Shown: positions 2,036-20,733 of the stretch, in pieces
Numbering within the stretch: position 1 is the first letter of the stretch
Layout of the letters: every line of letters begins with the position of its first letter
DNA from: Microgenomates group bacterium GW2011_GWF2_46_18
GTDB taxonomy: Bacteria; Patescibacteriota; Microgenomatia; UBA1400; UBA12108
Length of the DNA stretch: 50,261 nt
NCBI GenBank assembly: GCA_001002415.1
Contig: LCMB01000002.1
Span: 3,434-53,694 of the forward strand
Reading direction: 5' to 3'
Position numbers and translations under genes: made by a program
The notes under the pieces: model-generated
Told to the model about the DNA's origin: nothing
What the model saw: the letters and a program-made list of their open reading frames with translations, nothing else
Databases searched by the model: none

Positions 2036-3025
2036 TTAGTATATATCTTGCAAGAGCAGAAGTATAAGTCCAATGACGCGATCTTTATCTTTGGGATTAC
2101 TCTCGGCAATTAATATTGTAATAGTCGTGAGCGCGGTTGCGGTAAATTTACTCGTATCGAGTAAATTGTATTTGCGTAATAACCAGATAAAGATAAAGGC
2201 GCCAGAGCGCTTATTCCCATCAACTAAGGGGTGATTTTTGATAACAAAGTATAAGAGATGGGCTGCTTTTTCTTCGATGGTGGGATACAGATCCTCTTTC
2301 CCATATGACTGCAAAATATTCCCCACAATGCTAGCAATCCCACCCCTTTCTCTCTCAATTCCAAAAAACTCACTAGCTATTTGATCGGTGATTAGTGCTT
2401 GCCTGAACTCTTTAAGAATAGTTTTAACCTGTTCTATTGTAAGCACAACTTCTTTGAGTGTTGCACCTTCTTTGGGCATGGTTGATTTGTCATAGGCGTC
2501 GAGTGAGAACCAGGTGGAAGCAAATAGTTTGATGAGTTCAAGTGTTTCTGTGCCCGTGACGCTATTATTTGTAGGGAGTAATCTCTTAACATCTTCGACT
2601 GCGAGTAGGAATTTATCATAATTCCTACTAATCATTTTTTTGTTGATGGTGTAGCCAGTCAAAATATGTGATCGAAGTGTTTTGGTGGCCCAGATACGAA
2701 ACTTGGTTCCTAATACTGAGTTGATTCGATAGCCGACTGCAATTATTAGATCTAAGTTATATGAATAGACTTGTCTCTTTATTTGTCTATTACCTTCTTT
2801 TTGAACTTGTTCCATTTTGGAACATGTTGCCACCTTTTCTAATTCTTGATCATCATAAATGTTAGCAATATGTTTTGTAATAGCTTGGGAGTTGACGCCA
2901 AAAATTTGGGCTATTTGTGCTTGAGTTGCCCAGACGGTGTCGTGATTGTAGTCACCTTTGAGTTCGATGGCACCATCTTTGGCTTGGTATACGATGATTT
3001 GGGATAATTCCCCTGTTTTATTCAT
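2036..3025 (-). CDS. RhuM-family N-terminal domain fused to a Fic/Doc (death-on-curing type) domain
   Basis: The N-terminal part (QAQIAQIFGV...ITKHI...LDLIIAVGYRINS..GTKFRIWAT) resembles RhuM virulence-family proteins. The C-terminal HPLVDGNKRSGA fits the Doc-type motif HxFxDGNKR. Confidence 0.7.
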   Translation of the reverse strand: MNKTGELSQIIVYQAKDGAIELKGDYNHDTVWATQAQIAQIFGVNSQAITKHIANIYDDQELEKVATCSKMEQVQKEGNRQIKRQVYSYNLDLIIAVGYRINSVLGTKFRIWATKTLRSHILTGYTINKKMISRNYDKFLLAVEDVKRLLPTNNSVTGTETLELIKLFASTWFSLDAYDKSTMPKEGATLKEVVLTIEQVKTILKEFRQALITDQIASEFFGIERERGGIASIVGNILQSYGKEDLYPTIEEKAAHLLYFVIKNHPLVDGNKRSGAFIFIWLLRKYNLLDTSKFTATALTTITILIAESNPKDKDRVIGLILLLLQDIY

Positions 3026-3118
3026 GACTTAAATATATACTAAACTGTTATTATCGTGAAAAGTCTAACTCCGTTCAGATATGTTAAATCTAAAAGAGAT
3101 TGAGATCAGGTAGTAGAC

Positions 3119-3220
3119 ATGTTCTGTAACCGAGAAGTAGAGTTTGACATTACCTTGCCCGAGTTACAATCATTTTACGCCGACTTTGGCTTGGTCCCTA
3201 GTTTCCCTATTTCAGATTAG
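3119..3220 (+). CDS. Candidate 33-aa small ORF, paralog of 5089..5187
   Basis: My own translation: MFCNREVEFDITLPELQSFYADFGLVPSFPISD. It shares its start context (attgagatc.ggta..ATGt.ctg) and 10 identities over the 20 aligned residues with the ORF at 5089. It overlaps the 3' end of the convergent hydrolase gene. No clear SD. Confidence 0.3.
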   Translation: MFCNREVEFDITLPELQSFYADFGLVPSFPISD

Positions 3221-3932
3221 TTTTGTACCAATTATCAATTGTATCTATCATAAGTTTTTCAGTCCCCGGTAATTTGCAGGCGTGGTCCGCACCTTTCAGT
3301 AGTTCATAGTCATATTTGATAGAGATTGCTTCCCTATAATCGTCCATGACTTGCTTTGGGACCTCCTGGTCTAGCTCGCAAGCCATAAACAATATCTTGC
3401 CTTGGAACTCACTAATAGCTTTGAGAGCTTTATTATTTTCTTTGGTGTGATGACTGAGTCTGTAGGAGGTAACCTCGCTTTGTTCTTGGGAAAGCTTGGG
3501 TTCGTTCCAACCTTCGTCTGGGTAGAGAGCTGGCGCTTTGAGGAGTATTTTGTCGACTTTTCTTGCTTGAGCGACCAATGTTCCCATGTATCCGCCATAG
3601 CTACTGCCAAAAACCGAGATGTCGGAGGTATCGGCATTTGGTAGGTTTACCATAAAATCATAAGCAGCTAAACAATCGTCTAGATGGTCTTGTCTAGAGA
3701 AAAGAGATAGGTCTCCGCCAGTTTCACCGTGACCTCTCATATCATATAAAACAGCGATATGTCCTGCCTCGACTACTGGTTCTATTCTCACTGGATACCG
3801 TGCCATTGCACTTGTCCAACCGTGAATTACTAAAATTACTGGTCTCTTTCCTGAAAACGTCGGATTTTGTAAGACTAATCCTTTCAGTGTAGAGCCGTTT
3901 GAAAGTGGAATATTTACGTTTGTTGTTTGCAT
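3207..3932 (-). CDS. Alpha/beta hydrolase (dienelactone hydrolase / S9-like)
   Basis: Nucleophile elbow GSSYGG, HGW oxyanion region and a C-terminal GADH motif. Confidence 0.65.
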   Translation of the reverse strand: MQTTNVNIPLSNGSTLKGLVLQNPTFSGKRPVILVIHGWTSAMARYPVRIEPVVEAGHIAVLYDMRGHGETGGDLSLFSRQDHLDDCLAAYDFMVNLPNADTSDISVFGSSYGGYMGTLVAQARKVDKILLKAPALYPDEGWNEPKLSQEQSEVTSYRLSHHTKENNKALKAISEFQGKILFMACELDQEVPKQVMDDYREAISIKYDYELLKGADHACKLPGTEKLMIDTIDNWYKTNLK

Positions 3933-4257: not shown

Positions 4258-4998
4258 CTAGTGCTGCTTGATAAATTTGCTAATTATGTAGTTAAATTCT
4301 ACCTCATTTTCTAGGTTTACCATGTGGCCAGAGTTACCAATGTACTCTAGATTAGAGTTGATAATTTTGTCGGCCAGAGTATCTGCTATGGTGTGATAGT
4401 AATCGAGGTCCTTGTCGCCAACCAGGATTTGTGTGGGTAATTTGATCTCACCTAGCCTATCAATGGCGGGCGGGATTAGTTTTATCCATGGATCATGGTT
4501 GAGCCAGTGCCAGCCAGAATAATCGGACACCATTTGCTTAAGTCTTGAGAAAATCTTTGGATTAGATTTGACTGAGTCAAACACGGGATGATTTAGCCAG
4601 TTCTCCTTGGCTTTTTCTAATCCCTGCTCTTTGGCGTAGACTTGCCAGTTGACTGAGCTGGCATAGCCACCAAGGGATGAGTCTGCGAGTGTCAAGGTTA
4701 GGACTGTATCTGGGTTGGTAAGGACATAGTCGAGAGCAACTTCTCCCCCTAGCGAAAGTCCAACTAAGTGAAATTTGGAGAGATTTAGGCTTGTGACAAG
4801 GTCGTGAAGATTGTCATGGTGAGTATATGGCCCTGTAGGTAGTGGTGATTTGCCAAAGCCACGCATGTCGTAGGTAATGACTTGGTTGGTTTTGCTAAGG
4901 ATCTCTACTTGAGGGTCCCACATTCGTGAGTCAAGGGAAAAGCCGTGAACGAAGATGATTGGTACACCCTCGCCTTTTGATTGAAAATACAAGTCCAT
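4258..4998 (-). CDS. Alpha/beta hydrolase fold protein
   Basis: HGFSLDSRMW oxyanion region, nucleophile elbow GLSLGG and a C-terminal GH motif. Confidence 0.7.
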   Translation of the reverse strand: MDLYFQSKGEGVPIIFVHGFSLDSRMWDPQVEILSKTNQVITYDMRGFGKSPLPTGPYTHHDNLHDLVTSLNLSKFHLVGLSLGGEVALDYVLTNPDTVLTLTLADSSLGGYASSVNWQVYAKEQGLEKAKENWLNHPVFDSVKSNPKIFSRLKQMVSDYSGWHWLNHDPWIKLIPPAIDRLGEIKLPTQILVGDKDLDYYHTIADTLADKIINSNLEYIGNSGHMVNLENEVEFNYIISKFIKQH

Positions 4999-5022
4999 CA
5001 GCTAATTGTATCAGGATATTGA

Positions 5023-5046
5023 CTATATCAAACTATATCATTGGGT
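5023..5046. repeat. 24-bp perfect direct repeat, distal copy (ctatatcaaactatatcattgggt)
   Basis: Identical to 6043..6066. It contains an internal tandem ctatatca-aa-ctatatca. It lies 24 nt upstream of the 4258..4998 start codon. Confidence 0.9.
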
Positions 5047-5088
5047 CAGCTAGTGGACTCATTCGTGAACAAGAAAATTGAGATCGGT

Positions 5089-5187
5089 ATGTCTGCTCCA
5101 GAGTTGAAATCATTAGTCGCAAATTTTGATTTAGTGGCTAATTTTACATATGTGGACTTGAGTCAAACATCCATTCCAGAGCTTTGA
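5089..5187 (+). CDS. Candidate 32-aa small ORF, paralog of 3119..3220
   Basis: My own translation: MSAPELKSLVANFDLVANFTYVDLSQTSIPEL. Homologous to the 3119 ORF at nucleotide level (30/45 in the core) and at peptide level. It overlaps the 3' end of the convergent APH gene by 44 nt. Confidence 0.3.
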   Translation: MSAPELKSLVANFDLVANFTYVDLSQTSIPEL

Positions 5188-6013
5188 GCGATTTCTGTAG
5201 ATACTCGTCTTCTCTGATTCCGCAATATAGATCTTCGAATATCAAACATTTGGCGTAGAATACTGTCCTCACCCTGATTTGTTCTCTGATTTCTGGGGTA
5301 GCATTGTGTTTGGCGAGGACCATGTCGAGTATCCTAGGACCTATATCGCGATAAATCCGTGCAAAATCACAGGCTGGGTCAGCGATTGCGACGCCTCCCC
5401 AATCAATGATCCCACTCACCTTACCATCTGTTACCAGGATATGCTCTATTCCTAGGTCATTGTGACAAAGAACTTTGTTGACCAGTTCATCTTGTGGCTT
5501 TGAGTTAAAAAAGGTCTCTATCTCTGGATAATGCTTGCTTGGAACTAGATGCTTGGTTTTTTCGTAAAAACGATAGCTGTGAGTTTGCCAGTCTGCAAAA
5601 GACTTGTCCTCTATGAGGATGTTGAGATTGTCTAACTCATTTTTAGGAATTGAGTGTAGTTTGTTAAGGAAATCGCCGATTTGCTCTGAAAATGTCTTCC
5701 AAGCGTCAAAATGTGCCATTTCGTATATTAATGGGTTACCCTGTAGCTTTTCGTATCCTACAAAAGAATGATCCGTTGGCAGATAGTCAAATTTTGGATA
5801 TGGCAAAGTACTATATCTACTTAGTACTGGTTGCAAAATGATTTCTTGAGCTAGCTGGATTTGGTTGGCAGGACCCTTGGGATAGCGAAAGACTAGATGA
5901 TCGTTTACCTCATAAGCGATATTGCCTGTCCCTTCGCCAATTTTTACGATTTTGCTTATGGTAAGGTCAGGAAAATTTTTGGAAATTAGTGATTGTGCTG
6001 TGATTTCGTCCAT
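5144..6013 (-). CDS. Aminoglycoside/small-molecule phosphotransferase (APH family kinase)
   Basis: Catalytic loop CHNDLGIEHILV and IDWGGVAIADPACDFA, both typical of the APH/choline-kinase fold. Confidence 0.7.
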   Translation of the reverse strand: MDEITAQSLISKNFPDLTISKIVKIGEGTGNIAYEVNDHLVFRYPKGPANQIQLAQEIILQPVLSRYSTLPYPKFDYLPTDHSFVGYEKLQGNPLIYEMAHFDAWKTFSEQIGDFLNKLHSIPKNELDNLNILIEDKSFADWQTHSYRFYEKTKHLVPSKHYPEIETFFNSKPQDELVNKVLCHNDLGIEHILVTDGKVSGIIDWGGVAIADPACDFARIYRDIGPRILDMVLAKHNATPEIREQIRVRTVFYAKCLIFEDLYCGIREDEYLQKSLKALEWMFDSSPHM

Positions 6014-16600: not shown

Positions 16601-18883
16601 TTACTTTTTGATAAGTTTAAGTTCGGTGTCGTAGAGAACTTGGCGGGTTTTGTCGATGACATCGGGGGTCACGCTGACACTAGTTACCCCTAGCCGACAG
16701 AGAAATTCGGCAAAGTCGGAGTGAGAACTGGGAGCTTGACCGCAGACACTCACGGTCACCCCGCGTTTGTGGGCGGTTTTGATGATATGTTCGAGAGCCC
16801 AGAGGACGGCGGGGTTACGCTCGTCGTAGTCGGAAGCCACTGTTTCATTGTCACGGTCGGTGCCAAGCATAAGCATGGTCAAATCGTTGGTCCCGACGGA
16901 GATGCCGTCAATACCAACATCAATAAAGGAATCGAGAAGAATGACGTTAACCGGGATCTCGACCATCATCCAGAGTTTAAAGGTAGAGGTACGAGGGAGT
17001 CCGGAAGCAATCACGAGTTTTTTGACTTGCTGCATTTCTCTGACATTTCGAACAAAGGGGATCATTAAGTGAAGATTTTTGTAACCCAATTTTTGGCGGA
17101 CTTTTTTGATGGCTTCGAGCTCGAGCTCAAAGACGTCGGCGTCGTGAATGTAGCGATAGGCTCCGCGATAACCGAGCATGGGATTGGGTTCAACGGGCTC
17201 GTACTCTTTGCCGCCTTTGAGGTGGCTGTATTCGTTAGTTTTGAAATCAGTGGCGCGGTAGACTACCGGTCGGTCGCCAAAAGCCGCACAGATTTTGCTC
17301 ATACCCTCGGCCAGTTGATTAACAAAAACGTGGCTTTGCTTGTCTTTGATGAGTTTTTTGGGATGAGTGCCGATATTGGCAATCATAAATTCGGCCCGCA
17401 ATAGTCCCACTCCATCGACATTGCGCTTGGCAATTTCCTCAGCAAGATCAGGTTCACCCAAGTTAACATAGACTTTGGTGGCAGTTTTGAGGGTAACGGC
17501 GGGCGCGTGGTAGGCCGCTTGAGTGGGAGCAAAATTGACAGAAGAGGCTTTGAGACTACTTGCGTAAACTTCTCCTTTGGCGCCGTCGACTGTGACAACC
17601 CGACCTGGTTTGAGCGACGTTGTAGCCGTTTTGGTGCCCACGACACAGGGAACACCGAGCTCGCGGCTGACGATCGCGGCGTGGCTAGTTTGACCGCCTT
17701 TGTTGGTAATGATGGCTACCGCTTTTTTCATCGCAGGAACAAAGTCGGGAGTAGTCATATCCGTGACCAAAATGTCACCGGCTTTGATGCGATTAATTTC
17801 CCGGGCTGATTTGAGAATATTGACAATACCAGTGGCAACGCCAGGACTAGCAGGCTCTCCCGTTAGAATGACTGGGCCGGTAATAGTTTGGACGGCTTTG
17901 TCGACAGCGGCCTGTTTGGCGGTGGTGGCCGTAATGGTCGTGATCGGCCTGGTTTGGACTACAAATAATTTGCCATTTTCGATCGCCCATTCGATATCCT
18001 GAGGGAAAAAGTAGTGCTGATGCAGTTTTTTGCCGAGTTTGGCGACTTCGACTGCTTGAGCATCGGTTAATTTGCGCTTGTGAATGCGGCTGGCTGGGAC
18101 TTTGCGATCAATGTTGCCGTCGCCACTTCTGACCATTTCGATCGTTTGGGGAACCGTGCGATGGGTAACTAATTCGAGACTGGTTTTGTCGACTTCGTAA
18201 TGATCAGGAGTGATTGCCCCTTGGACAATTTTTTCTCCCAAGCCCCAGATAGCCTCGACAATGATTTGGGTCTTGTCGTTGGTCACGGGGTTCACGGTAA
18301 ACATGATTCCGGAGACATCTGACTGGACCATTTTTTGAACTGGCACAGCGAGGGCGACTTTGAAATGATCAAAACCTTGATTGACCCGATAGTAGATGGC
18401 CCGAGGTTCAAAGAGACTGGCCCAAGCTCGGCGAATATGAACTAGGAGTGAGGCATCGCCACGAACATTCAGATAGGTCTCCTGTTGGCCGGCAAAGCTG
18501 GCATTGGGGAGATCTTCGGCGGTGGCACTACTTCGCACGGCCACCAGTGGGTTAGAGCCTAATTTGTCGTAGGCTTTATAAACCTGTTCTTCGATGGCTT
18601 GGGGGAAAGGAGAACGCTCGATGATTTTTTGGACTTCGTGACTGGCACGATTGAGCGCATCGGCATCTTCCACATTCAAGCCTTTTAGAAGAGCTTTAAT
18701 TTTGTCTTCGAGCTGATTTTCTTCAATCATGTGACGGTAGGCACTACTGGTCACGACAAATCCACCAGGTACGGGGAAGCCGGCCTTGGTCATCTCGCCC
18801 AAGTTAGCACCCTTGCCCCCGACACGGGCAATATCATCTTTATCAATTTCGTGGAACCAGAGAACGAACTTTGGGGCAGTCAT
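16601..18883 (-). CDS. ppsA: Phosphoenolpyruvate synthase (pyruvate, water dikinase)
   Basis: VGGKGANLGEM ATP-grasp N-terminus, GGQTSHAAIVSRELGVPCVVG phospho-His domain and a C-terminal PEP-utilising TIM barrel. 760 aa. Confidence 0.85.
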   Translation of the reverse strand: MTAPKFVLWFHEIDKDDIARVGGKGANLGEMTKAGFPVPGGFVVTSSAYRHMIEENQLEDKIKALLKGLNVEDADALNRASHEVQKIIERSPFPQAIEEQVYKAYDKLGSNPLVAVRSSATAEDLPNASFAGQQETYLNVRGDASLLVHIRRAWASLFEPRAIYYRVNQGFDHFKVALAVPVQKMVQSDVSGIMFTVNPVTNDKTQIIVEAIWGLGEKIVQGAITPDHYEVDKTSLELVTHRTVPQTIEMVRSGDGNIDRKVPASRIHKRKLTDAQAVEVAKLGKKLHQHYFFPQDIEWAIENGKLFVVQTRPITTITATTAKQAAVDKAVQTITGPVILTGEPASPGVATGIVNILKSAREINRIKAGDILVTDMTTPDFVPAMKKAVAIITNKGGQTSHAAIVSRELGVPCVVGTKTATTSLKPGRVVTVDGAKGEVYASSLKASSVNFAPTQAAYHAPAVTLKTATKVYVNLGEPDLAEEIAKRNVDGVGLLRAEFMIANIGTHPKKLIKDKQSHVFVNQLAEGMSKICAAFGDRPVVYRATDFKTNEYSHLKGGKEYEPVEPNPMLGYRGAYRYIHDADVFELELEAIKKVRQKLGYKNLHLMIPFVRNVREMQQVKKLVIASGLPRTSTFKLWMMVEIPVNVILLDSFIDVGIDGISVGTNDLTMLMLGTDRDNETVASDYDERNPAVLWALEHIIKTAHKRGVTVSVCGQAPSSHSDFAEFLCRLGVTSVSVTPDVIDKTRQVLYDTELKLIKK

Positions 18884-18919
18884 ATATTCAATATATGATG
18901 TATATTGAACTAAGTAAAC

Positions 18920-18944
18920 CCCTACGGGGTTACACCCTGAAGGT
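18920..18944 (+). repeat. REP-like repeat copy 1 (5' flank and leader of the transposase gene)
   Basis: Exact 25-mer shared with 19626..19650. It can form ACCCC-TAC-GGGGT and ACC-CTGAA-GGT mini-hairpins. Confidence 0.9.
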
Positions 18945-19625
18945 ATGCCTGCAAAAAATATTGTTAAACAGTATGTGGAAGGTGGATATTACCACGTTTA
19001 CAACCGTGGAGTAGAGAAGAGGGAAATATTTTTAGATGAGGAAGATTATAAGAAGTTTATCGGATACTTAAAACTATATTTATCTTCCCCTACCCTACAG
19101 GGTTCAACCCTGAAGGATGAGTTTAATAGAACCATACCTCCATCACGTGCTTTAAATAATTTTTCTCAGGAAATAGAACTTGTTGCGTATTGTTTGATGC
19201 CTAATCATTTTCATTTATTACTTAAGCAGATTACGCAGCGTGGAATGGCGAGTTTTATGCAGTCTTTATTTACAAAGTACGTGATGTATTTTAATCGCAA
19301 GTACCATCGCGTTGGCGCCTTGTTCCAAGGCACATATAAAACAGTTAAGGTCGATAGTGAGGAACAACTTAAGTATTTAAGTAAATATATTCATAGAAAT
19401 CCTTTGCCGGAAAGACCTACAAGGTTACACCTTGAAGGCTTAAAGGATTATAAATACTCAAGCTACGGTAATTATCTTGGCTTGTTTAAACAGCCGTGGA
19501 TTAAACCTGCTGATGTGTTATACAGCTTTTCGAGAACCAATGATTTTTTGAGCTATAAATCGTTTGTAGAGGAGACTGGAGATGTGGAAATAATTTACAA
19601 TGAGATGATTGATTTGGATTACTGA
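18945..19625 (+). CDS. IS200-like / REP-associated tyrosine transposase (Y1 HUH family)
   Basis: YHVYNRG, HUH motif MPNHFHLLL, FQGTYK, and catalytic Tyr context YIHRNP followed by YKYSSY. Confidence 0.8.
   Translation: MPAKNIVKQYVEGGYYHVYNRGVEKREIFLDEEDYKKFIGYLKLYLSSPTLQGSTLKDEFNRTIPPSRALNNFSQEIELVAYCLMPNHFHLLLKQITQRGMASFMQSLFTKYVMYFNRKYHRVGALFQGTYKTVKVDSEEQLKYLSKYIHRNPLPERPTRLHLEGLKDYKYSSYGNYLGLFKQPWIKPADVLYSFSRTNDFLSYKSFVEETGDVEIIYNEMIDLDY
19093..19116 (+). repeat. REP-like repeat copy 2, inside the transposase CDS
   Basis: ccctacagggttcaaccctgaagg is 21/24 identical to copy 1. It encodes ..TLQGSTLK.. in a loop between conserved motifs. Confidence 0.8.
19416..19438 (+). repeat. REP-like repeat copy 3, inside the transposase CDS
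   Basis: cctacaaggttacaccttgaagg is 20/23 identical to copy 1. It encodes PTRLHLEG just after YIHRNP, in a different frame from copy 2. Confidence 0.8.
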
Positions 19626-19650
19626 CCCTACGGGGTTACACCCTGAAGGT
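19626..19650 (+). repeat. REP-like repeat copy 4 (3' flank)
   Basis: Exact 25-mer, followed by the partial echo ctaaggtgc. Confidence 0.9.
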
Positions 19651-19665
19651 GCCCCCTAAGGTGCA

Positions 19666-20733
19666 TCATTTGGCCATCTCTTGTTTAAACCAGTCCACAT
19701 TGGGAATGGGAGAGGGATTGATACCATAAAGGATCGGGAGGTAGTTTGCGACGAATTCTCCAAGCTGGATAATTTCAAAAATTTGTTCGATGACGGTGGG
19801 AGCCGTTGCTTGGATGAGGTGAGCCTCGTAACCTTTTTGTTCAATCAAAGTCTGAGTCAACGGAAAACGTTTGTGGACACGTTCAGTGTAGAGTGCAGAA
19901 TTGAAAAGGAAGAAGATCGTGGTATCTTTGGCAAGTTTGGGAAATTGGAGTGCCTCGAGATAGTGATGATTAAACTCGGGCAGTGACCATTCACTGGTCA
20001 AAACCTTACTATTTTCGTTGATTTGATTGTTGGCGACGTGGACAGCGCCGATTAGATGCTCGGCACCCACTAGGACGATATGTTTGTCGTAGGCAGCATA
20101 GGCAAGCATTTTGGCGGTGTTGTTAGCGGTTGACTCTGGCTGAAGACGAGTAACGAGAGCGGGAAGGTTTTTTACTACCTGAGAGAGGACGGATGATTGG
20201 TCGGAGATGATACCGGCTCGTCCGAACATAATAAGCTGACCGGCGAGCGCGTAGCCAATAGCTAAGCGTGGCTGATTGCAGGGATTGTGGTTAACCTGGA
20301 TTTGATAGAGCGGCCATGATTCAGCCTTGGCCAATTCGGCCAGTTTGCCGCCACTCGTTATCACCATGACCTTTGCGCCACGAGATTTGGCTTCGACTGC
20401 AGCTTGGAGGGTCTCTTCGGTGGTACCGGAGTAACTGGAGAGGAGAACTAAGGAGTCTGCGTTGACATAATTAGGAAGGGAGTAATGACTCACTACCTCG
20501 AAGGGAACTTTGAGCTCGGATTTGAAGGCATGTTTGATAATGTGGGCTGCCAGAGCCGATCCTCCCATACCAGAGACGACCACGTTTTTAACTTGGGAGT
20601 ACTCAGGTGGAACCGAGAATGATTGGGTTTGTTCTAACGTATCCTGGATCTGCAGTCCTAATGCCTCGACAGAATCGAGGAGTCCGGATTGGTCAATTTT
20701 TTTGATTTCAGTGCGCGAATCAAGAATACTCAT
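19666..20733 (-). CDS. Bifunctional phosphoglucose/phosphomannose isomerase (SIS domain, PGI/PMI family)
   Basis: SGMGGSALAAH and LSSYSGTTEETL SIS motifs, plus a PGI/PMI-type C-terminal domain. Confidence 0.7.
   Translation of the reverse strand: MSILDSRTEIKKIDQSGLLDSVEALGLQIQDTLEQTQSFSVPPEYSQVKNVVVSGMGGSALAAHIIKHAFKSELKVPFEVVSHYSLPNYVNADSLVLLSSYSGTTEETLQAAVEAKSRGAKVMVITSGGKLAELAKAESWPLYQIQVNHNPCNQPRLAIGYALAGQLIMFGRAGIISDQSSVLSQVVKNLPALVTRLQPESTANNTAKMLAYAAYDKHIVLVGAEHLIGAVHVANNQINENSKVLTSEWSLPEFNHHYLEALQFPKLAKDTTIFFLFNSALYTERVHKRFPLTQTLIEQKGYEAHLIQATAPTVIEQIFEIIQLGEFVANYLPILYGINPSPIPNVDWFKQEMAK

Follow-up and report, generated by a model that had tools for sequence, protein, structure and literature searches.

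A REP-like imperfect palindrome at four positions in and around a Y1 HUH nuclease gene of a Microgenomates bacterium

The best structural match of the protein described here is the E. coli REP-associated tyrosine transposase (RAYT, or TnpA-REP; structure 4er8; Ton-Hoang 2012; Messing 2012; Corneloup 2021, PMC8266576), encoded by a housekeeping-like gene that exists in single copy, is inherited vertically and has imperfect palindromes on both sides. This enzyme cleaves and rejoins folded single-stranded DNA (ssDNA) copies of the repetitive extragenic palindrome (REP) in vitro (PMC8266576). The persistence of RAYT-type domesticated transposases and the copying or correction of their hairpins are still a matter of study; classical systems confront the enzyme with hundreds of dispersed REPs, so that cause and effect are hard to separate. 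We describe a case reduced to a single gene with four hairpins in 731 bp and no detectable genomic population, found in a stretch of 50,261 bp (the window, i.e., the whole stretch analysed) of Microgenomates group bacterium GW2011_GWF2_46_18 (contig LCMB01000002.1). The Y1 HUH nuclease encoded there is related to RAYTs and is probably a resident enzyme of the domesticated type, with the 25-bp repeat at these four positions as its cognate, REP-like hairpin.

Several described systems share part of this plan. The E. coli REPtron differs from the locus by its hundreds of dispersed REPs and bacterial interspersed mosaic elements (BIMEs), its GTAG foot guide, its bulged stem and its flanking REPs in inverted pairs, none of which we found here, whereas the protein studied here, of 226 aa, has a conserved C-terminal tail of 55 aa unlike that enzyme. 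In-frame REPs are often present inside the tnpA-REP genes of subclass 2.4 (Quentin, Siguier, Chandler, Fichant 2018, PMC6006769), so that the arrangement, which the original prediction could not attribute to any described one, has a precedent, although at another position and in another subclass. Like our locus, subclass 2.4 REPtrons (Bertels group 4) combine a class 2 Y---NP enzyme, flanks made of the cognate palindrome and frame-preserving copies in a peripheral, variable region of the protein. Those REPtrons occur mainly in Cyanobacteria and Bacteroidetes, with GT[AG]G REPs of a long or 'double-foot' type (PMC6006769). In contrast, the hosts here are Patescibacteria, the internal sites lie before the HuH motif (residues 50-57) and after the Y motif (158-165), the NHFH, FQ, YIHRNP and SS motifs point to a subclass 2.1-like protein and not to subclass 2.4, and neither a conserved GT[AG]G foot nor a dispersed population was found. 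The concerted evolution and precise loss described below were not reported in that study (PMC6006769).

The closest catalytic motifs (NH[YF]H, FQ, Y[IV]H.NP, SS) and length are those of TIRYTs (TIRtrons; subclass 2.1, Bertels group 1; Di Nocera et al. 2013, PMC3733652), whose flanking repeats also often stand outside any dispersed family (PMC3733652). TIRYTs, however, have terminal inverted repeats with a GGGGWSAS consensus and, in many cases, a C-terminal helix-turn-helix (HTH) or DnaA_C-like domain, features not found here, whereas our locus has self-complementary hairpin flanks, mostly in direct orientation, plus copies in the coding sequence (CDS); subclass 2.1 has been reported to lack REP-like structures nearby (PMC6006769). 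Insertion sequences (ISs) of the IS200/IS605 family (IS200, IS608, ISDra2) are likewise minimal units of ~0.7 kb with a Y1 HUH enzyme between similar same-strand subterminal hairpins, as the outer copies here are identical and direct, and their precise excision, which restores the donor backbone, can be likened to what we observed. Yet they are multi-copy and horizontally mobile, with a Y---Q motif and guide-defined cleavage away from the hairpin, whereas the gene studied here is single-copy, of class 2 and fixed in its synteny. Finally, Rickettsia palindromic elements (RPEs) and other intragenic REPs are short palindromic repeats held in frame in coding genes and tolerated in loops (PMC3733652), but RPEs form dispersed families in many unrelated genes, whereas the copies here are confined to the gene of their own presumed enzyme. 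An analogy with integron cassettes and attC sites was considered and set aside, because the enzyme is of the Y1 HUH type and there is no integrase. Our literature searches found no published description of the four-hairpin arrangement in Patescibacteria; within the REPtron/RAYT theme it stands apart by its subclass and host phylum, by where the copies are inserted, by having neither a GT[AG]G foot nor a dispersed family, and by the demonstrable concerted evolution and precise loss.

One imperfect palindrome at four positions

The exact 25-mer CCCTACGGGGTTACACCCTGAAGGT occurs twice on the same strand, where 0 occurrences are expected in shuffled sequences, and the two copies, H1 and H4, directly abut the ATG (18945) and the TGA (19623-19625) of a 226-aa open reading frame (ORF). 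Two diverged copies, H2 and H3, lie within the CDS (Table 1), and a repeat search of the window grouped H1-H4 as one four-copy family; by our own estimate, the chance of a match of at least 20/25 in the 681-bp CDS is ~1e-5. Scanning both strands of the 50,261 bp with up to 8 mismatches revealed no further copy. H2, H3 and H4 start 148, 470 and 681 nt from the ATG and hence at codon positions 2, 3 and 1; the reading frame of H3 is one off from that of H2 and, because of this difference in frame, the two copies encode different peptides. The exact 25-bp direct flanks and the two internal copies in different frames announced by the original prediction were thus all recovered, with internal identities of 21/25 and 20/25. 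Its claim that the repeats bound the ORF exactly holds for this locus but not as a general rule, since the spacing between flank and gene varies in homologs (roughly 0-70 nt upstream and 0-60 nt downstream).

The central 23 nt of the repeat form one imperfect palindrome, CCTAC(R)GGGT-TAC-ACCCTGAAGG. Its stem has 10 positions (CCTACGGGGT / ACCCTGAAGG), of which position 4 is an A·A mismatch and position 6 a G·T, and its 3-nt loop is TAC. The two small hairpins proposed earlier (ACCCC-TAC-GGGGT and CACC-CTGAA-GGTG) are both parts of this single REP-like structure, which in its full form is the minimum-free-energy fold of H2 (-7.3 kcal/mol), H3 (-8.0 kcal/mol, z -4.45) and H4. The substitutions in the internal copies keep or improve the stem: a G>A change at stem position 6 (25-mer position 7) turns the G·T of the flanks into A-T in both H2 and H3, and a G>A at stem position 7 (25-mer position 8) of H3 is compensated by C18>T, so that the stem is kept. 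Avoidance of stop codons was examined as a cause of the A·A mismatch and rejected: a T at position 21 would make TAG in the H2 frame, but a synonymous A5>T could restore pairing and stop avoidance alone therefore fails to explain why the mismatch is conserved. Rfam gave one chance-level match only (E 0.71). We did not find a conserved GT[AG]G tetranucleotide at the 5' foot of the hairpin, nor a flanking GTAG conserved across the family; in the clade of the window, CTAC...G(A/T)AG occurs within the stem, and the equivalent positions vary across the family (CTGC, TTTC, TGAC, TCGC and others).

Covariation among related loci supports the stem. In 38 hairpins from 24 loci, 95% of the cells were paired, 9 of the 10 stem pairs showed compensatory changes and the covariation score was 0.62, as compared with 0.21 in shuffles and at most 0.17 with slid partners; this set was chosen by a palindrome finder, which inflates the percentage of pairing but not the variety of compensatory changes. 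Moreover, the four 25-bp copies of this vertically inherited locus evolve in concert. In five syntenic orthologs, all four copies have a locus-specific loop in common (TTACA, TCTCA or TCGGA), with 1.83 mismatches per 23 nt between copies within a locus versus 3.42 between loci at the same position, a within-locus likeness that none of 10,000 permutations reached (p < 1e-4). The proportion of synonymous differences (pS) is 0.00-0.64 at the hairpin codons versus 0.65-1.07 in neighbouring segments, and this drop, seen only at the hairpin codons, indicates a constraint at the nucleic acid level. Together with the differing frames and the covariation of flank and internal copies between genomes, it bears out the earlier view that the similarity resides in the DNA and is not a protein repeat.

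Of 44 scorable loci, 30 had their flank pair in direct and 11 in inverted orientation, with 3 undecidable; among the comparisons in which the central loop base differed between copies of a locus, 30 showed its complement and 4 another base. In two orthologs (L086 and L088), the H2 loop is the reverse complement of the flank loop (TGTAA vs TTACA). Hairpins have evidently been inverted occasionally.

It might be argued that the hairpins serve mainly as RNA or transcription signals, with H1 occluding an SD-like (Shine-Dalgarno-like) GAAGG sequence and the start codon, as the IS200 stem-loop does, H4 terminating or stabilising the convergent transcripts of the Y1 gene and of its PGI-type neighbour, and the internal copies being passive by-products of homogenisation. 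Indeed, H1 contains GAAGG and ends at the ATG, the same arm lies 3-31 nt upstream of the ATG in orthologs, H4 lies between convergent genes, and the solo hairpin of a relative devoid of the Y1 gene (L001, see below) stands right at the PGI stop codon, with a T-rich run after it on the minus strand. However, stem mismatches on the sense strand are balanced between G·T (50) and A·C (44), which gives no sign of a folding confined to the mRNA strand; loop flips and inverted flank pairs are common, unlike what a sequence-specific RNA signal would show; and a promoter and terminator scan made no + strand call near H1 or H4, neither of which was called as a terminator. Signals of this kind would also leave unexplained why copies persist at two fixed CDS positions and why their stems covary there. 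We consider it unlikely that such signals are the main role of the hairpins, although start occlusion by H1 and termination at H4 are plausible additions to their presumed role as substrate of the nuclease. Autoregulation through the 5' copy, which the original prediction envisaged, would be a conceivable further role. The search for RNA runs found none containing the Y1 gene.

The nuclease and its syntenic slot

Pfam, profile and structure matches agree in identifying the ORF product as a Y1 (IS200/RAYT-like) HUH enzyme, in line with the original prediction. It belongs to the superfamily according to Pfam Y1_Tnp (PF01797; E 5e-10; 39.9 bits vs a cut-off of 23). Among 97 homologs, H88 and Y148 are invariant and H90 nearly so, and in the motif Y148-IHR-N152-P153 the residues Y148, N152 and P153 are invariant or nearly so, which corresponds to the Y---NP signature of class 2 TnpA-Y1 enzymes (PMC6006769). 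The profile of these homologs matches ISDra2 TnpA among solved structures. The AlphaFold2 model (predicted local distance difference test score, pLDDT, 81.8; predicted template-modelling score, pTM, 0.81) has 4er8, the E. coli RAYT bound to its REP hairpin, as closest match in the PDB (E 1.2e-5, TM 0.65), followed by the ISDra2, IS608 and IS200 transposases; 2xo6 and 2vjv are among the structures matched. When compared with the published table only (PMC6006769), NHFH, FQ, YIHRNP and the SS after the tyrosine helix appear to correspond best to subclass 2.1. In the AlphaFold2 model, H3 falls directly after the catalytic helix and H2 within a 28-residue loop that leads from helix A to strand 2, has no regular secondary structure and shows lowered pLDDT. 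This loop is what had been described as an insertion of ~20 aa; H2 does encode part of it, but only 8 of its residues, and the remainder includes the invariant P66 and N72.

The proportion of nonsynonymous differences (pN) between syntenic orthologs is 0.13-0.20 with saturated pS (0.70-0.92), implying strong purifying selection on the Y1 gene. The order enolase-PPS-[Y1]-PGI-PMM-holA is kept around the exact protein and around orthologs of 83, 71, 70 and 72% identity, and a slot that remains fixed over such distances argues for a resident gene and not for a hopping IS. By its synteny and its pN far below pS, the gene thus appears to be single-copy, vertically inherited and housekeeping-like. 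In a one-genome-per-species collection of 185,579 species, the exact 25-mer was found only in L001, where the Y1 gene is missing and one hairpin alone lies between the PPS start and the PGI stop. This solo hairpin occupies the H4 position, directly abutting the PGI stop codon, and the junction shows no extra or missing bases. The L001 PPS is 97.7% identical to that of the gene-bearing L086; since L001 is nested among gene-bearing relatives, its empty state represents the secondary loss of the gene together with one hairpin.

The same facts bear on the possibility that the locus is an autonomous IS of the IS200/IS605 type, a ~0.7-kb unit still mobile by peel-and-paste transposition whose ends are marked by the repeat, L001 being then an unoccupied or freshly vacated target. 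A unit of ~706 bp with similar, same-orientation hairpins around a Y1 enzyme is reminiscent of IS200, its absence in L001 is precise, and the fold resembles IS608 and ISDra2 TnpA. Nevertheless, the same syntenic slot is occupied in orthologs down to ~70% identity whose synonymous sites are saturated, each locus has one gene, with no other copy of the hairpin or the gene in 50 kb or in whole assemblies, the motif is the Y---NP of class 2 and not the Y---Q of IS200 transposases, and the nested position of L001 speaks for loss. An IS that is still mobile is therefore quite improbable.

The C-terminal tail (residues 167-226; 19443-19622), for which Pfam reported no HTH, evolves in its own way. In L087, L088 and L090 it has a pN of 0.03-0.05 with saturated pS, and it has diverged in the window and L086 (pN 0.19-0.25); to judge from these sequences, it looks like a distinct functional domain under lineage-specific constraint. 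Pairwise identities of the segment after H3 and of the core are related with r 0.22 only, one pair having 98% identity in the tail and 60% in the core. Shuffling of modules at the hairpins was considered as an explanation and discarded because codon analysis spoke against recombination: the low pN of the tail (0.03-0.05) with saturated pS (0.71-0.73) indicates protein-level purifying selection in one clade. Shortened variants of 184 aa, in which most of the tail is missing, were seen in locus L002 and as proteins P0104 and P0118. In every metagenome run examined, dozens of other contigs match a 35-45-nt stretch coding for the CLMPNHFHLL core (19183-19228) with 90-95% identity, which points to many related genes from other organisms in the same samples.

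Relatives of the locus and the search for dispersed copies

A single homolog search scored >7,800 relatives at E <= 1e-5, mostly of ~226 aa, the named ones coming from Patescibacteria that include Microgenomates, Woesebacteria and Collierbacteria. We fetched 80 metagenomic loci, 78 of which were usable. As in the window and in RAYTs in general, the gene is flanked by its cognate palindrome in ~50 of these 78 loci, with the same 13-50-nt palindrome before the start codon and after the stop codon and a sequence that differs between loci. In ~33 of the 50 flanked loci, the locus' own flank sequence recurs in the CDS at the equivalents of window residues 50-57 and/or 154-163, with scores of 13-26 versus a mean of ~6 with the repeats of other loci (maximum of the controls 13, in two loci). 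A stricter automatic count, which provides lower bounds among 77 loci, retained at least 42 flank pairs, 16 copies at site 1 and 24 at site 2. Four near-identical copies each were found in L003 (CCTGCAGGGCCAGGCCCTGCAGG), L012 (CCTGCGAGGAGACTCCTCGCAGG) and L068 (TTGACAGGTATCATACCTGTCAA). A hairpin of the locus' own sequence stands at the H1 position in 4/4 orthologous loci examined, and homolog loci also carry their own hairpins at the H2 and H3 sites. Both internal sites are the most length- and sequence-variable protein regions of the family. The original prediction would have been refuted by a motif absent elsewhere in the genome together with homologs devoid of nucleotide-level repeats; the motif is indeed absent elsewhere, yet the homologs carry repeats that match their own flanks.

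In many distant homologs (L017, L021, L026, L029, L034, L037, L042, L049, L051, L060, L065 and L077), the 3' hairpin overlaps the last codons and the stop, so that C-terminal residues are hairpin-encoded. L055 has two tandem paralogous Y1 genes (2470-3260 and 4500-5290), and each of them stands between double hairpins that resemble REPINs, with AAGGACGGACCT..AGGTCCGTCCTT on the upstream side and GAGGTCCGTCCTC..AGGACGGACCTT on the downstream side.

In an ordinary REPtron, the RAYT would mobilise a dispersed REP/REPIN population, whose members would have landed independently and repeatedly in and around the gene, as in subclass 2.4 RAYTs and Rickettsia RPEs. In-frame REP insertions in tnpA-REP and other genes are documented (PMC6006769, PMC3733652), and a few homolog loci have one extra copy nearby. 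However, these copies, in L063 and L039, were the only two outside Y1 genes in 125 kb of DNA flanking 40 loci, and each of four whole metagenome assemblies has the 25-mer on a single contig, and there only at the two flank positions. The genome-wide count that had been proposed as a check therefore yielded no copy beyond the locus in the window or in these four assemblies, and no dispersed REP/REPIN family of the flank palindrome was found in the 50 kb, the four assemblies and the 125 kb of flanks, a scope compatible with a few distant copies; the species scans gave the single exact hit in L001. Furthermore, lineages with different hairpin sequences have their internal copies in register, at the same two codon positions and in the same two frames, which fits inheritance and correction and not repeated independent insertion. 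An ordinary REPtron is thus an even weaker candidate than a mobile IS. The extra copy of L063 (1844-1872) brackets, with the upstream hairpin of the Y1 gene, an unrelated 165-aa ORF after dnaE, and that of L039 (1695-1714) separates a pair of convergent genes.

Chance, a protein-level repeat or an assembly artefact, in favour of which one can cite only the small size of the motif, can be dismissed given the 0 matches expected in shuffles, the differing frames, the covariation with the flanks in dozens of loci and the occurrence of the identical locus in four records (two assemblies from NCBI and one each from ENA and JGI) and, with 0 differences, in Logan contigs from four separate sequencing runs, which also excludes the artefact that the original prediction had envisaged.

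Possible workings of the locus and its mapped features

Returning to the reading of the 25-mer as the cognate hairpin of a resident nuclease, we infer, by analogy with E. coli TnpA-REP and with IS608 and ISDra2 TnpA (PMC8266576), that the hairpins would be the ssDNA substrate of the enzyme. Each copy would fold when the locus becomes single-stranded during replication or transcription, and the Y1 enzyme would bind the folded hairpin, cleave beside it and rejoin ssDNA via a 5'-phosphotyrosine intermediate. Strand exchange or templated correction might keep the copies alike, exchange between the direct outer copies H1 and H4 would excise the gene together with one hairpin, and the loop flips could result from the inversion of a copy processed through the folded hairpin. 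The internal copies may be tolerated because, in the structural model, they are placed outside regular helices and strands.

Several observations weigh against this reading. Logan contigs of the four runs, which are assembled contigs, contained the intact locus only, with no excision, deletion or circle junctions. No conserved guide or cleavage motif (GTAG, or a C|T site) was identified beside the hairpins. The NCBIfam model REP_Tyr_transpos (NF047646) matches residues 75-156 only, with 38.4 bits vs a cut-off of 80, and to this may be added the palindrome-based choice of the covariation set mentioned above. Moreover, both the concerted evolution and the precise deletion might have arisen through host recombination or replication slippage at direct repeats of 25 bp, without the Y1 enzyme, and the internal copies may be merely tolerated, without any further function.

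A bolder version would see the enzyme and its four hairpins as a closed, self-referential module devoid of a REP population, whose only substrates are its own borders and two functional internal sites and which enzyme-driven correction maintains across thousands of Patescibacteria. We regard it as doubtful, though somewhat less so than the use of the hairpins mainly as RNA signals. If it were true, binding or cleavage at hairpins extruded within the gene could provide, for example, a self-limitation coupled to replication or transcription, a tethering in cis, or a reversible self-excision with re-homing into the solo hairpin, and the closed module would show a new way in which a domesticated HUH element can persist.

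The locus offers a compact natural model for the co-evolution of an enzyme and its hairpins in ultra-small groundwater bacteria, with concerted evolution, stem covariation, loop flips and precise loss as evolutionary read-outs. Its family is very large and resides in streamlined genomes, where the purging of non-essential DNA is expected. Its coding sequence has to satisfy protein function in two different frames and DNA secondary structure at the same time. Since hairpin/enzyme pairs differ between lineages, they also constitute a ready-made panel for studies of HUH specificity.

Table 1 Coordinates of the Y1 gene, the hairpin copies and the neighbouring features in the window.
Feature	Position	Strand	Remarks
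PEP synthase / PPDK-type gene (PPS), left neighbour	16601..18883	-	conserved synteny anchor
H1, 5' flank hairpin copy	18920..18944	+	exact 25-mer; palindrome core 18921-18943; last base adjoins ATG
CDS of the 226-aa Y1 HUH nuclease, RAYT-like	18945..19625	+	Pfam Y1_Tnp; >7,800 homologs; AlphaFold2 model
H2, hairpin copy within the CDS	19093..19117	+	21/25 (84%); codons 50-58; peptide TLQGSTLK (T50-LQGSTLK57)
HUH motif H88-F89-H90	19206..19214	+	aligns to ISDra2 TnpA HUH
Catalytic tyrosine Y148 in YIHRNP	19386..19388	+	invariant in 97 homologs
H3, hairpin copy within the CDS	19415..19439	+	20/25 (80%); codons 157-165; peptide PTRLHLEG (P158-TRLHLEG165)
H4, 3' flank hairpin copy	19626..19650	+	exact 25-mer; first base adjoins TGA
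Tandem 12-mers CCCTGAAGGTGC / CCCCTAAGGTGC	19641..19664	+	from repeat search; partial extra copy of the hairpin 3' arm, between H4 and PGI stop
SIS / bacterial PGI-type gene, right neighbour	19666..20733	-	convergent with the Y1 gene; second conserved synteny anchor

Two further sequences lie at the edges of the unit. Neither L001 nor L086 has the tandem 12-mers that lie between H4 and the PGI stop; on the minus strand, these extend the predicted structure to -9.2 kcal/mol. On the other side, the divergent intergenic region between PPS and the Y1 gene contains a perfect palindrome with a 9-bp stem, TTCAATATATGATGTATATTGAA (18887-18909), overlapped by a promoter-like site on the minus strand. 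Related AATATA-N-TATATT palindromes occur in orthologs and a similar imperfect sequence in the gene-less L001, so that this palindrome is probably part of the promoter or operator of PPS and no part of the Y1 unit.

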